Assembly: GCA_963928595.1 (NCBI GenBank)
Contig: CAWVFK010000025.1
Span: 4,070 to 68,069, forward strand
Length of the DNA: 64,000 nucleotides
DNA from: Candidatus Coprosoma sp.
GTDB taxonomy: Bacteria; Bacillota_I; Bacilli_A; RF39; UBA660
Reading direction: 5' to 3'
Shown here one piece after another: positions 11,434 through 60,518 of the stretch. The notes under the pieces are model-generated. The model saw only the letters and a program-made list of their open reading frames with translations, searched no databases and was not told the DNA's origin. Each line of letters begins with the position of its first letter. The first letter of the stretch is position 1. Position numbers and translations under genes: made by a program.

Positions 11434-11862
11434 TTAATCTTTCTTTTTAAAGACAATTATTTTAGCTAGGACATAATTCATAACTATGACTACGACTTGA
11501 GTAACTAGTTTACAAATGGCATCATTAATATGCATAATACTGAAAAGAATAAACATTAATGACATATCAATTAATAATGATGCTACTCTAGAGCCAAAAA
11601 AGTTGATAATTTCTTTAACTTGTTTTTGTCCTTTTACTTTACTCTTAAAAACATATTTACGGTTAGTAAAATAAGCAAAGATAACAGCGCAGATCCACGA
11701 TAAGACATTGGCTATTTGAATATCTAAATCTGATTTACCAGATAAAAAAGTATTAGTGAATAAGAAATAAGTAACTAAAGTAATTAAGGTAGTTAAAACT
11801 CCAACGATTAAATAATTAATTATTTCTTCATATTTAAAATACAATTCTTTTATTTTTTTCAT
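11434..11862 (-). CDS. GtrA-family membrane protein
   Basis: 142 aa with 4 TM helices and the motif YFTNRKYVFKS, typical of the GtrA-like family. Confidence 0.75.
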   Translation of the reverse strand: MKKIKELYFKYEEIINYLIVGVLTTLITLVTYFLFTNTFLSGKSDLDIQIANVLSWICAVIFAYFTNRKYVFKSKVKGQKQVKEIINFFGSRVASLLIDMSLMFILFSIMHINDAICKLVTQVVVIVMNYVLAKIIVFKKKD

Positions 11863-11872
11863 ACTTTATCCT

Positions 11873-12250
11873 CTATGCGCACCTGTTTGTACTACAAGAA
11901 TTTACATAACTATATTTATATTGATTATTAGAACTATCAAAAGTTATTCTAACACATCCTGTCATAGGCTTATCATTTGTTGGGTCTATTACTTCTTTTT
12001 CACTATCTAGATATCCTTCTTGCTTTAAGAAGTCAATACTAACATCGCATGAAGCATCAGGTAAGCTTCGAACATTATCTGTTCCCCATCTTTCAGCGGC
12101 ATCAATAATAGTGTTTTTTTGTTCATTCAAAGTGTTTTCTCTAGAGTCACTGATTATTCCAACTATGGTTGGAACAGCAATGGTGGCCAAAATACCCAAT
12201 ATTACAATTACGGCTAGTAATTCAATAAGTGTAAAGCCGTTTTTTTTCAT
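11873..12250 (-). CDS. prepilin-type N-terminal cleavage/methylation domain protein (type IV pilin / pseudopilin)
   Basis: MKKNGFTLIELLAVIVILGILATIAVP is a class III signal (G|FTLIE). Cys pairs in the C-terminal globular part. Consensus TTGACA-N17-TATAAT promoter at about 12266..12294. No pilus assembly genes lie in the window. Confidence 0.85.
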   Translation of the reverse strand: MKKNGFTLIELLAVIVILGILATIAVPTIVGIISDSRENTLNEQKNTIIDAAERWGTDNVRSLPDASCDVSIDFLKQEGYLDSEKEVIDPTNDKPMTGCVRITFDSSNNQYKYSYVNSCSTNRCA

Positions 12251-12310
12251 ACTATCACCTAGATTAAATTATACGTTCTTTAAGGTTAGGTGTCAATAAT
12301 GAAGGGTTAC

Positions 12311-12348
12311 ATTCTCCAAAGATTCCCATATTTTGTCAATGTGTAAAT
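12311..12348 (+). repeat. copy A of a ~38-nt intergenic repeat
   Basis: ATTCTCCAAAGATTCCCATATTTTGTCAATGTGTAAAT. Related copies lie at 23631..23670 (minus), 58660..58697 and 58783..58821. Confidence 0.7.
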
Positions 12349-12417
12349 GATATATTTTATTTTAACTTTTGCTCCCTGTGATTTGTCTTTATGTTAAAAC
12401 TATGTTATGATGTATAT

Positions 12418-12532
12418 AGATGAAGAAAACTTCATAAAATATTAAAGGAACATTCAATAATCCGATGTTGAGTGTTGCCACATATAATTGTGTATCACCT
12501 AAATCATTGGATGAGTTAGGTGATTTTCTTTT
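12418..12532 (+). ncRNA. putative antisense (antitoxin-like) small RNA, copy 1
   Basis: TTGTCT-N17-TGtTATGAT promoter (12383..12411). Hairpin ATGAAG/CTTCAT (12420..12435). Hairpin AACATTCAA/TTGAGTGTT. Terminator ATCACCTAA/TTAGGTGAT plus a T-run (12494..12532). No ORF. The ends are predicted, not mapped. Confidence 0.55.
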
Positions 12533-12615
12533 ATATTATTAATATAAATAGTAGAAATACAAGTAGGAAGGTAAGAATGACTAAAGAAAGAATTAAAATA
12601 ATTTTTCTTATTCAT
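12531..12615 (-). pseudogene. type I toxin-like small hydrophobic ORF, apparently disrupted by a 1-nt insertion in an A-run
   Basis: ATG 12615 behind AGAGAGG gives MNKKNYFNSFFSH, which is not hydrophobic. The +1 frame reads (I)RKIILILSLVILTFLLVFLLFILII* and ends at 12531. Removing one A from AAGAAAAAT (12601..12609) restores MNKKIILILSLVILTFLLVFLLFILII. Confidence 0.45.
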
Positions 12616-12742
12616 TATATTGCCTCTCTTCTAAATAGAGGTTTTGTCTCACTAAACTTACTGAATATTTCTTAATACAATTATAAAAAATAATTATATA
12701 AAATAATATATTATACTTTGTAAAAAATGGATGTGATAATTT

Positions 12743-13849
12743 ATGAAAAGTGTGGGAATAATATGCGAATATAATCCATTTCACAATGGGCATTTATATC
12801 ATATAAAAAAGGTCAAAGAATTATATCCTGATTATGTGGTTATTGCTGTTATTAACGGCGATTTTACCCAAAGAGGCGATGTTAGTTTAATAGATAAGTG
12901 GAAAAAAACTGACGTGGCATTGAATTTTGTTGATCTAGTAGTTGAACTTCCATTTTGTTTTGGAACGCAAGCAGCGGACATTTTTACTAAAGGTAGTACT
13001 GATATTTTAAAGGCTTTAAAAGTCGATGCTTTTGTATTCGGAAGTGAAAGTGCGGATATAGATAAATTAAGAAAAATTGTGGAAATTCAGGGAAGTGTAG
13101 AATATAGCAATAAAATTAAACAATATTTGGATGAAGGGTTAAGCTACCCTGCTAGTTTAGCTAGAGCTTTAAAGGATTTGGGAATTATTTTAGAAAATAA
13201 TCCAAATGATTTACTGGGAATTGGTTATATTAGAAATTTAAAAGGTTTAGAAATTAAGGCAATTAAAAGAACTAACGATTACCACAGCTTAGATTTAAAA
13301 AAAATTTCTAGTGCGACGAGTATTAGGGAGGCTTTAAAAAAAGGGATCAACGTTAAAGATTTTGTACCTAAGGAAAGTTATGAGAGCTTAAATGATCTAC
13401 ACTTTTTGGATAATTATTTCGATTTACTTAAGTATAAAATTATTAGTACTGACGATTTAAGTATTTATCAAACCGTTGATGAAGGAATTGAAAATAAGAT
13501 TAAAAAAAATATTTTAAAAGCTCATGATATTGATGAGTTAATAAATTTGGTTAAATCAAAAAGATATACATATAATAAAATCAAAAGAATGCTTTTACAT
13601 ATCTTATGTGGGTTTACCAAAGAAGAAGCGAAAAGATGCAAAGAAACACAATATATTCGTGTTTTAGGTTTTAATGATAAAGGTAGAAGATATTTAAACA
13701 GCATAAAAAAAGAGTGTGAACTGCCAATTATTACAAAGTATGATAATAGCTATGAAATGATGAGAATTGAAAATAGAGTTAGTAATATTTATAATATTAA
13801 AAAAGATGACTTTTTAGAGGAATATAAGCATAAGCCTATAATCCGTTAG
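12743..13849 (+). CDS. tmcAL: tRNA(Met) cytidine acetate ligase (YlbM/UPF0348 nucleotidyltransferase)
   Basis: N-terminus GIICEYNPFHNGHLYHIKK (HxGH nucleotidyltransferase motif). Length and overall sequence are typical of the TmcAL/YlbM family. Confidence 0.85.
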   Translation: MKSVGIICEYNPFHNGHLYHIKKVKELYPDYVVIAVINGDFTQRGDVSLIDKWKKTDVALNFVDLVVELPFCFGTQAADIFTKGSTDILKALKVDAFVFGSESADIDKLRKIVEIQGSVEYSNKIKQYLDEGLSYPASLARALKDLGIILENNPNDLLGIGYIRNLKGLEIKAIKRTNDYHSLDLKKISSATSIREALKKGINVKDFVPKESYESLNDLHFLDNYFDLLKYKIISTDDLSIYQTVDEGIENKIKKNILKAHDIDELINLVKSKRYTYNKIKRMLLHILCGFTKEEAKRCKETQYIRVLGFNDKGRRYLNSIKKECELPIITKYDNSYEMMRIENRVSNIYNIKKDDFLEEYKHKPIIR

Positions 13850-17163: not shown

Positions 17164-18450
17164 ATGATAGACATAAAACTAATTAGAGAAAACAGAGAGT
17201 TAGTTAAAGAAAATATTAAAAAGAAATTTCAAGATAAAAAATTGCCTTTAGTTGATGAGGTATATGAATTAGATATTAAGTGCCGCGAAGCCAAAGGTAA
17301 AGGTGATGAACTAAGAAAAGAGAAAAATGAGAAAAGCGCTTTAATTGGCGCTTTAATGCGCGACGGCAAAAAGGACGAAGCTGAAAAAGTTAAAGCGGAA
17401 GTTAGTAAATATGGTGATGAGATTGCAAGATTAGAAAAAGAAGAAGAAGAACTGAGAAAAAAAATTCATGAAGATATGATGGTAATTCCAAATATTATGG
17501 ATCCATCTGTACCTATTGGTGAAGACGATTCTAAAAATGTAGAATTAGAAAAATTTGGAGAACCAGTTATTCCTGACTTTGAAATACCTCACCATGCAGA
17601 TATATGTGAAAGATTAAACGGTTTAGATAAAGAAAGTGCAGGAAGAACAAGTGGTAATGGATTTTATTATTTAATGGGCGATGTAGCTAGACTACATTCT
17701 GCAATGCTTAGTTATGCTAGAGATTTTATGATCGATAAAGGTTTTACTTACTGCATTCCTCCATTTATGATCAGAAGTGACGTGGTAAATGGTGTTATGA
17801 GTTTTGAAGAAATGGATGCGATGATGTATAAAATTGAAGGTGAAGATTTATATTTAATTGGTACATCTGAACATTCTATGATTGGTAAATTCCAAGGACA
17901 AATTATTAAAGAAGATGAACTTCCTATTACTTTGACTTCTTATTCTCCTTGTTTTAGAAAAGAAGTTGGAGCTCATGGAATTGAAGAACGCGGTTTATAT
18001 AGAGTTCATCAATTTGAAAAACAAGAGATGGTTGTTTTATGTAAACCTGAAGATGGTATGAAGTTCTATGATAAAATGTGGAAATACACTGTAGAATTTT
18101 TTAGAAATTTAAATATTCCTGTTAGAACTTTGGAGTGCTGCAGTGGTGATTTAGCTGATTTGAAGGTTAAGTCATGTGATGTTGAAGCATTTAGTCCTAG
18201 ACAAAATAAGTATTTTGAAGTTGGTTCTTGCTCAATATTAGGTGATGCACAAGCTAGAAGACTTGGCATTAGAATGAAAACTAAAAATGGTAATGAGTAT
18301 GTAACTACTTTAAATAATACAGTGCTTGCTACTCCACGTGGTTTAATTGCTTTCTTAGAAAACAATGTAAATGCAGATGGCAGTGTTAATATTCCAGAGG
18401 TATTAAGACCTTATATGGGGGGTATAGAAAAATTAGTTCCTAAAAAATAA
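17164..18450 (+). CDS. serS: seryl-tRNA synthetase
   Basis: 428 aa with an N-terminal coiled-coil arm and a class II core (FRKEVGAHG, YRVHQFEKQEMV, ATPRGLIAFLENN). Downstream of the Ser T-box. Confidence 0.95.
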   Translation: MIDIKLIRENRELVKENIKKKFQDKKLPLVDEVYELDIKCREAKGKGDELRKEKNEKSALIGALMRDGKKDEAEKVKAEVSKYGDEIARLEKEEEELRKKIHEDMMVIPNIMDPSVPIGEDDSKNVELEKFGEPVIPDFEIPHHADICERLNGLDKESAGRTSGNGFYYLMGDVARLHSAMLSYARDFMIDKGFTYCIPPFMIRSDVVNGVMSFEEMDAMMYKIEGEDLYLIGTSEHSMIGKFQGQIIKEDELPITLTSYSPCFRKEVGAHGIEERGLYRVHQFEKQEMVVLCKPEDGMKFYDKMWKYTVEFFRNLNIPVRTLECCSGDLADLKVKSCDVEAFSPRQNKYFEVGSCSILGDAQARRLGIRMKTKNGNEYVTTLNNTVLATPRGLIAFLENNVNADGSVNIPEVLRPYMGGIEKLVPKK

Positions 18451-60388: not shown

Positions 60389-60518
60389 ATTTTACCTCCA
60401 TACGGGAACTCTCTCCCTAATTCTATTGTAAAGGTAATATAGTGAGAAGTCAAGAAAAAATATTTTGACGATTTGGGCATTCCTTGAAAAAAAGTTAATT
60501 TTGTGTTATGATGTATAT

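Follow-up and report, generated by a model that had tools for sequence, protein, structure and literature searches.

The locus analyzed here raises the question of what has become of a putative toxin gene whose hydrophobic reading frame is shifted by a single base and which is faced by an intact small RNA (sRNA) gene. It lies at positions 12383-12700 of a 64,000-nucleotide (nt) stretch of DNA from Candidatus Coprosoma sp. (assembly GCA_963928595.1, contig CAWVFK010000025.1), the whole of which is called the window below, and it is one of about 11 copies of a module that were found by BLAST in this genome (1.13 Mb, 29% G+C, 50 contigs). An earlier note, made from the letters alone, had read it as a third copy of the module in which an antitoxin-like RNA is retained beside a toxin open reading frame (ORF) broken by one extra A, and had left sequencing error and recoding as alternatives. 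That observation was confirmed: the sRNA gene on the plus strand is intact, the short minus-strand ORF facing it has its hydrophobic frame shifted by one base, and the sRNA promoter, both hairpins, the terminator, the Shine-Dalgarno (SD) sequence, the ATG, and the two frames are all present where the note had placed them (Table 1). Our findings make it very probable that the locus is a toxin pseudogene beside a retained antitoxin-like RNA, in a multicopy chromosomal cassette, resembling toxin-antitoxin (TA) systems of type I, in an uncultured bacterium of the gut Bacilli (RF39-like, chicken gut). What the analysis shows is that the extra base truly exists, that the ancestral allele was intact, that the toxin gene is damaged on several levels, and that both the structure and the sequence of the sRNA are conserved. 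The decay proposed in the note is supported.

Contigs that carry the extra base and align without a gap over 12590-12615 came from runs of five studies (X1, probably the source sample; X2 and X4; X5; X6; X12), among them runs from feces (X5, 2020), chicken gut (X6, 2022), and air (X12, 2025), and at least three haplotypes share it, with X6 and X12 differing from the window elsewhere by single-nucleotide polymorphisms (SNPs) or insertions and deletions; contigs cannot reveal minor alleles within a sample. More than 15 further ENA/Logan contigs from other assemblies, made with different assemblers and reached by an exact-protein look-up of two flanking genes that returned the same strain only, also carry the lesion, among them one of 1,017,201 bp, and all are 100% identical over 701 nt. 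Because the lesion recurs across independent studies and assemblies, sequencing error is excluded for practical purposes.

In a MAFFT alignment with the four closest paralogs, the gap falls inside a T-run, this copy reading AAAAATT[A]TTTTAATTC and the paralogs AAAGATT-TTTTAATTC. The note had proposed comparing the locus in sister strains, and one such strain carries an intact allele at the same locus (X15, X17, X23-26, L041), between the same genes for a pilin-like protein and a HIGH-nucleotidyltransferase (NTase). Beyond 12598 this strain reads AATCTTTCTTGTTCATTATATCGCC..., or ATGAACAAGAAAGATTTTTTAATT... in the toxin sense (the loose ends of its contigs read AATCTTTCTTGTTCAT...), and its ORF, reconstructed with the SNPs listed for the strain, is MNKKDFLILSLVILTFLLVFLLFIVLI, which at 27 amino acids (aa) has the family length and ends at the same stop position. 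The hydrophobic +1 frame, RKIILILSLVILTFLLVFLLFILII, which the note had taken for the original one, is indeed the ancestral frame, as the intact 27-aa paralogs and the sister allele share its stop, a TAA at 12533-12531 that lies under the T-tract of the sRNA. The most parsimonious history is the insertion of one A into a T6 run (TTTTTT to TTATTTT; plus-strand T12599) together with a G-to-A change (D5N), that is, two events, compared with four for the placement in the A-run AAGAAAAAT (12601-12609) that the note had favored. All six differences from the sister allele in the coding sequence (CDS) are derived in this copy, with paralog C46:12265 as the reference, and the insertion at T12599 moves the transmembrane (TM) frame out of register after codon 5.

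The damage extends well beyond the insertion. Over the toxin promoter and 5' untranslated region (UTR; 130 nt), 18 derived changes were counted here versus 1 in the sister L041 (relative-rate test with the L040 and L044 alleles, both with intact toxins, as outgroups; binomial p = 7.6e-5). The -35 of the toxin promoter is lost (TTGTAT to TATTAT), as is the TG of its extended -10 (TTTGT to TTTTT, TTTGTTATAAT to TTTTTTATAAT), and the promoter scan did not report a toxin promoter for this copy, so that of the two promoters that the note had regarded as retained, the one for the sRNA is intact and the one for the toxin is not. In the 5' box of the toxin mRNA, GGAAC has become GAAAT and GGG has become TAG (GTTGGGTG to GTTTAGTG), and the SD sequence has changed from GGGAGG to AGAGAGG. 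Pairing of the SD with the anti-SD, for which the canonical anti-SD was assumed as no 16S 3' end was found in this assembly, amounts to -9.3 kcal/mol here versus -19.3 in the sister allele and -18.7 +/- 1.9 (weakest, -14.8) in 43 intact copies. The predicted duplex between the first 34 nt and the last 62 nt of the mRNA has weakened to -15.3 kcal/mol versus -36.7 in the sister, and this closing duplex has -36.3 +/- 4.5 kcal/mol (weakest, -18.8) in the 43 intact copies; the minimum free energy (MFE) of the whole mRNA is -46.2 kcal/mol versus -76.6 for the sister allele. In intact copies, the 5' box pairs with the stretch just behind the stop codon in a helix of 9 to 11 contiguous bp that shows compensatory changes from copy to copy (GGGTGG/CCACC, GGGCGC/GCGCC, GAGTGC/GCACTC); here two mismatches interrupt it, and 4 contiguous bp are left.

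The sRNA gene presents the opposite picture, with promoter, all helices, and terminator intact, and it is apparently constrained, evolving more slowly than the protein-coding genes next to it. Its MFE is -35.1 kcal/mol (z = -5.2), and none of 200 shuffles fold as well. In an alignment of 28 copies, 92.8% of the cells of three specified helices are paired versus 36 to 43% in slid controls, and 10 pairs show compensatory changes, a result that 0 of 500 shuffles reach. Both the -10 of the sRNA promoter and the adjoining GTATATAGATGA core recur unchanged in the copy at 60504 and hardly vary within the family. Relative to the diverged allele L042, the sRNA body (127 nt) is 96.1% identical, compared with 79.8% for the noncoding DNA to its left, 82.8% for the sRNA promoter, 73% for the toxin 5' region, 85.7% for the pilin-like gene, and 86.7% for the NTase gene (binomial p = 2.5e-4 for the sRNA body); the few differences are compatible with wobble pairing or lie in loops. 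Relative to the sister strain, 2 to 4 differences were found in 129 nt of sRNA (about 97 to 98% identity) versus 118 in 960 nt of the NTase gene (p between 3e-5 and 9e-4). We also noted that GTATATAG (12412-12418), between the sRNA -10 box and hairpin 1, is almost invariant across subfamilies and more conserved than the hairpins; it may serve as a protein-binding site or as an initial transcribed sequence.

Diverged strains were reached through NTase homologues of 85 to 95% identity, and the locus upstream of these was compared. The toxin is intact in L041 (subfamily 1, the sister allele), in L040 (subfamily 2, with a GTG start, MTKREKALYAIISLLFILIFVILFK), and in L044 and L045 (MSKREKALHTIIILLFILVFIILFK). 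L042 and L043 retain the sRNA but have a mutated -10 and an internal deletion that spans the SD, the start, and the N-terminal half of the toxin, and in L039 a larger deletion has removed the toxin through to the start of the NTase gene, together with hairpin 1 of a partly kept sRNA. As these alleles read, toxin loss at the same syntenic site is independent in other strains (L042/L043 and L039). In the wider clade, the peptide gene is lost and the sRNA kept in 11 of 70 copies, in a sample biased towards sRNA-bearing copies; the broken copies elsewhere in the clade are mostly 5' truncations, and the two frameshifts among them (L091 and L122) lie at positions other than T12599.

Several further observations on individual copies deserve mention. 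Within the intergenic site between the pilin-like and NTase genes (12251-12742 of the window compared with L039 to L045), the toxin subfamily varies by strain, being MNKKDFL... here and in L041 and L042 and MTKRE... or MSKRE... in L040 and L044, which suggests that recombination has replaced the cassette, the conserved 5' core of the sRNA and the 5' box of the toxin perhaps serving as homology arms. A second decayed copy in this genome lies outside the window (G000 contig C45:1234-1654); there the toxin stop TAG has become TGG and the ORF extends to MKKKRKISLCHNIPFILVFILLFKWKTAPISSPMI, the SD and promoter region upstream is replaced by unrelated sequence, and the sRNA half is kept with some substitutions in hairpin 1. 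L063 (G012:C1:848716-849156) is the reverse as regards the 5' end of the sRNA: the toxin is intact (MNKKDFLILSLIIIIFFLLSLLLITLI), and unrelated DNA with a new TGGTACAAT extended -10 stands in place of hairpin 1 and the usual promoter of the sRNA; the sRNA would then begin just before the A-rich linker, which suggests that hairpin 1 is dispensable.

The module family to which these copies belong appears to be an undescribed and unannotated family of type I TA-like loci. Its 21-nt core TGTTATGATGTATATAGATGA occurs twice in the window versus 0.00 times as expected from shuffles, and 28 of 41 related genomes contain homologous modules, as many as 14 per genome. When species-representative genomes were scanned with a pattern, the module turned up in metagenome-assembled genomes (MAGs) of uncultured gut Bacilli (CAG:822, CAG:605, CAG:451, and "uncultured Mycoplasma/Tenericutes"). 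The peptide is intact in 9 of the 11 copies of this genome (for example, MNKKDFLILSLVLLIFLLVFLLFIVLI, MTKRDNYFFFIILLLFILVFTLLYK, and MTKRTFVLRVLRYVTIILLLLTLLVIAIKK), in 35 of 38 assessable copies in relatives of the genus, and in 59 of 70 in the wider clade, samples that overlap and were drawn by similarity searches with the sRNA half. Intact peptides have 24 to 30 aa, beginning with M-[TNSK]-K-[KR] and followed by one TM helix, a single hydrophobic run of 18 to 22 residues. No type I antitoxin family of Rfam was found at the gathering threshold in the whole window, and a search of 12300-12760 up to E = 10 returned only two spurious snoRNA matches; Pfam and NCBIfam gave nothing meaningful for four family peptides and the 38-aa frame-0 product, and no paper pairing "type I toxin" with RF39 was found in the literature. 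Tandem arrangements also occur: in this genome, two neighboring copies from different subfamilies are separated by about 350 nt (G000 C46:11917-12685 and 17643-18063), and a complete genome has three or four modules in a row (G009:C1:753136-754240); tandem arrays are a known hallmark of type I loci. The same sRNA 5' core stands beside a different, longer, amphipathic peptide (MNSKEIILLYFLKILDKILDFIKLVFLLAFLRG) in L141, L152, and L163, which come from Coprobacillus sp. CAG:605 and related MAGs, so that the sRNA scaffold is combined with more than one type of toxin.

From these features we infer how an intact copy may work, including the toxicity of its peptide, the ends of its transcripts, the mode of sRNA action, and the reason for sRNA retention. 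On the toxin strand, no U-tract follows the first hairpin behind the stop codon, while in nearly all copies T5-6, the complement of the conserved A-rich sRNA linker, comes after the complement of sRNA hairpin 2; the toxin mRNA therefore probably ends there and would overlap the sRNA by about 95 nt at the 3' end. An intact copy would thus produce an mRNA of about 230 nt encoding a peptide of 24 to 30 aa. In the predicted folds of intact mRNAs, the first 30 nt or so pair with the 3' region and the SD lies partly in a local stem, so that the mRNA would be kept closed by a long helix between its extreme 5' end and the 3' UTR as well as by partial SD sequestration. The third closing factor would be the convergent sRNA (about 115 nt), which is a perfect complement of the final 95 nt or so of the mRNA (stop codon to terminator), and its pairing with the 3' UTR may lead to degradation or cleavage of the duplex or may block activation of the mRNA, by analogy with the 3'-overlap systems of Bacillus. 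The inverted repeats that flank the toxin ORF (the 5' box versus hairpin 2 and terminator) were also considered as terminal repeats of a miniature inverted-repeat transposable element, a candidate that was rejected in that the repeats are bounded by the predicted mRNA ends and covary.

Decay of this copy has proceeded toxin first, with the antitoxin kept, an order that is to be expected because prior loss of the antitoxin would be lethal. This lethality, by which an antitoxin would always be lost last, is the simpler reason for retention of the orphan sRNA, and cross-protection against similar toxin mRNAs of paralogous copies is possible. The orphan sRNA has a 24-nt perfect stretch of pairing with the copy at C32:18148, and its predicted duplex with the toxin 3' UTR of C46:17643 amounts to -104 kcal/mol versus -159 for its own target. 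That selection keeps it as a trans-acting "immunity" RNA, buffering other subfamily 1 toxin mRNAs or incoming cassettes, is a tentative idea that we consider somewhat unlikely to hold.

Certain observations weigh against reading the locus as a toxin pseudogene beside a constrained antitoxin-like RNA. Identity along the region is mosaic (the left intergenic sequence, for example, is about 98% identical in the sister strain), so that recent cassette recombination, mimicking purifying selection, might account for how similar the sRNA is between strains. As copies were found through the sRNA half, its constant retention is in part an effect of ascertainment. Derived changes are fewer in the CDS beyond the insertion (5 in 75) than in the 5' region (18 in 130); this difference is not significant (p = 0.17) but would allow function to have been lost more recently or only in part. 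The mapped metatranscriptome contigs (X23-X26) are of the sister allele only and undirected, and they are silent on the expression of the allele studied here. Toxicity of the family is, moreover, putative, and no curated family in Rfam, Pfam, or NCBIfam matches it.

This last point also speaks for the alternative that survives best, improbable as we consider it, namely that the family is not a TA family at all but encodes a harmless small membrane protein with a cis-antisense regulator, the present copy being an ordinary loss of a dispensable gene. The missing matches include the type I families of these databases, and the peptides have no Fst/Ldr signature. Against this stands an architecture that agrees with type I systems point for point (a short hydrophobic peptide, a convergent sRNA on the 3' end of the mRNA, a covarying closing helix, and SD sequestration; PMC8594479, PMC9841398), along with the high copy number and the tandem arrays. 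Asymmetric decay, in which the peptide is lost in those 11 of 70 copies and the sRNA is kept, fits counterselection of a harmful product, although the sample is biased towards sRNA-bearing copies.

A pseudogene is also to be preferred to recoding or leaky expression, a possibility to which we give little weight and in which a functional, attenuated peptide would arise by a +1 slip on AAG-AAA-AAU, by transcriptional slippage on A5, or by AUA or AUU initiation in the +1 frame. In favor of this, that frame stays open for 25 codons, remains hydrophobic, and reaches the stop usual for the family; re-pairing of tRNA-Lys on A-AAA-A is conceivable; 4 nt past the AUG there is an AUA codon in the +1 frame; and derived changes are somewhat scarcer in the CDS than in the 5' region. 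The insertion is, however, absent from the sister allele and from every intact copy (9 in this genome, 35 in the genus, and 59 in the wider clade, in overlapping samples), so that the site at which the note had imagined a ribosomal slip is unique to this lineage, and L091 and L122 are broken at different positions and share no slippery site with it. Frame 0 has neither a stop nor a rare-codon pause before the shift window and no prfB-type stimulator, and a -1 slip gives the wrong frame; the combination known from prfB-type +1 frameshifting, in which a conserved slippery site, a slow codon or stop, and a stimulator are kept in relatives, was not found. A run of five A's is too short for efficient transcriptional slippage. 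Moreover, the promoter, the SD, and the mRNA fold are all degraded, which is the opposite of what maintained recoding predicts. Programmed frameshifting is therefore very unlikely, and trace synthesis through AUA or AUU initiation or spontaneous slips would be noise; an attenuated toxin made in traces by these routes is a weaker variant of the tentative idea put forward above for the orphan sRNA.

That the lesion is an artefact of sequencing or assembly and the genome really has an intact third toxin is scarcely credible: the assembly is fragmented and MAG-like (50 contigs, 89% complete) and the lesion lies in a low-complexity A/T stretch, but the identical insertion occurs in the runs and contigs described above, including the one of 1.02 Mb, it interrupts a homopolymer where the usual error alters homopolymer length, and it is accompanied by the 18 derived changes in the expression signals of the toxin. 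As for the 38-aa frame-0 product being a new functional small protein that has replaced the toxin, the ATG, residual SD, and stop codon are in place, but we give the idea next to no chance, as the product is non-hydrophobic and has no family match in Pfam or NCBIfam, its frame passes through the complement of the sRNA terminator so that its C-terminal half is simply a translation of that complement, no other family member has so weak an SD and promoter, and no paralog or ortholog uses the frame, the conservation in relatives that in the note's view would have argued against decay being seen in none of those compared.

These findings correct the annotation of this copy, which is best described as a toxin pseudogene with an intact sRNA gene and not as a third active toxin or a recoding site. 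While gene decay itself is ordinary, and chromosomal hok copies are often inactivated, this locus is a clean natural example in which the direction of decay is recorded for an undescribed, multicopy, type I-like family: the toxin goes first, by frameshift, deletion, or erosion of promoter and SD, in every case seen, and the antisense RNA is kept, evolving more slowly than neighboring protein genes in three lineages, two of them with dead toxins. With intact and broken alleles at a single syntenic site, the locus offers a natural pair for a first toxicity and neutralization test of the family, and the damaged 5' box is a natural mutant of the covarying helix that closes the 5' end on the 3' end. 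If the orphan sRNA did prove to be an immunity RNA, the intact, frameshifted, internally deleted, and largely deleted alleles would be a natural series for studying how type I modules are domesticated. The value of the locus rests on this allelic series and on the evidence that an orphan sRNA is conserved, the family itself being a putative TA family.

Table 1. Features of the pseudogene and sRNA locus (positions in the window)
Feature	Position	Strand	Description
sRNA promoter	12383..12411	+	-35 TTGTCT, 17-nt spacer, extended -10 TGtTATGAT; direct reading and promoter scan (9/12 matches, with TG)
Antitoxin-like sRNA, ~115 nt	12418..12534	+	Predicted ends; order: hairpin 1, A-rich linker, hairpin 2, small hairpin 3, terminator
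sRNA hairpin 1	12420-12435	+	Predicted fold
sRNA hairpin 2	12447-12479	+	Predicted fold
sRNA terminator stem	12494-12524	+	T-tract to 12532
Toxin pseudogene	12531..12615	-	ATG 12615-12613; ancestral hydrophobic frame displaced by 1 base; TAA 12533-12531; three-frame translation
Frame-0 ORF, 38 aa, MNKKNYFNSFFSHSYLPTCISTIYINNIKENHLTHPMI (MNKKNYFNSFF...HPMI)	12499..12615	-	Frameshift product; non-hydrophobic; stop at 12499
Inserted base	12599	-	T on the plus strand, an A splitting the T6 run in the toxin sense; frameshifting lesion
Weakened SD AGAGAGG	12623..12629	-	GGGAGG or GGAGG in intact copies
Degenerate 5' box of toxin mRNA, TAAGAAATATTCAGTAAGTTTAGTGAGAC	12646..12674	-	Family consensus TAAGGAAYRTTCARTAGTTGGGTGnnnCC
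Decayed toxin promoter	12680..12708	-	-10 TATAAT (12685-12680) kept; TG extension and -35 (12708-12703) lost; alignment with L040, L041, and L044
Predicted toxin-mRNA terminator	12436..12479	-	Complement of sRNA hairpin 2, then U-rich tract (complement of sRNA A-rich linker)

The surroundings of the locus hold a few features of their own. A perfect consensus promoter (TTGACA-17-TATAAT, 12/12) lies on the minus strand at 12268-12296, 18 nt upstream of the ATG at 12250 of the pilin-like gene (11873-12250). The left intergenic segment 12306-12348 recruited several unrelated contigs in every metagenome compared, which is consistent with a repeated intergenic element of about 38 nt that contains a promoter-like site on the minus strand (TTGACA-17-GAGAAT). 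The sister strain (X17, X25) is without the gene for a GtrA-like membrane protein (11434-11862, minus strand), its contigs joining 11447 to 11874 with 23 other letters between.

Measured against known type I systems, the module shares their main features. A small (<60 aa), hydrophobic, membrane-type peptide is encoded by the intact paralogs and the sister allele and has its frame broken here; the antisense sRNA has its own promoter and terminator and, by its position, would be perfectly complementary to the toxin 3' UTR; and an mRNA structure that would limit translation, the closing helix with its compensatory changes, is present in the 43 intact copies and degraded in this one. In Gram-positive type I families, the antisense RNA lies on the 3' side and overlaps part of the mRNA (T1TAdb, PMC8594479). 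The module resembles BsrG/SR4, TxpA/RatA, BsrE/SR5, and YonT/SR6 of Bacillus subtilis in that convergent RNAs overlap at their 3' ends, a geometry found in all module copies with a predicted overlap of about 95 nt, in its small hydrophobic toxin, and in its several-hairpin sRNA, which in these systems has about 100 to 200 nt; by analogy, we assume an RNase III-dependent mechanism for the module as well. It differs from them in having no similarity in sequence or to covariance models, in its shorter peptides of 24 to 30 aa, in an sRNA that covers only the stop codon and the last one or two codons of the ORF, in its many cassettes that lie between core genes and not in prophages, and in its long helix between the 5' and 3' ends.

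With par of pAD1 (Fst/RNA I-RNA II), the module shares convergent promoters, a shared terminator hairpin, and structures that sequester the 5' end and SD of the mRNA (PMC7472228), but the hairpin on the toxin strand has no U-tract, so that the mRNA probably ends further on, and the sRNA of about 115 nt overlaps over about 95 nt and not just over the terminator. Fst/Ldr toxins are marked by a TM helix with PXXXG, a conserved Trp, and a highly charged C-terminal tail (PMC7472228), whereas none of about 60 distinct module peptides has PXXXG, Trp, or a charged tail, all ending 0 to 2 residues after the TM segment. For a second complementarity over the start, of the DRa/DRb type, the copies inspected offered only 6- to 8-nt A/U matches between hairpin 1 and the start region, which are not conserved and are absent in subfamily 2. 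By its sequences, the module is not a member of Fst/Ldr or of any antitoxin family curated in Rfam.

A further likeness is to hok/Sok, as the full-length toxin mRNA of the module is predicted to be closed by pairing of its 5' end with the 3' UTR, in the manner of the tac/fbi stem of hok (PMC9841398), a pairing that the compensatory changes support. In hok/Sok and in AapA1/IsoA1, however, the antisense RNA lies within the 5' part of the mRNA and not at the 3' end, and the module has no mok-like leader ORF and is unrelated in phylum and sequences. By analogy with these systems, the module would work like a 3'-overlap type I TA system to which a hok-like closing helix has been added.

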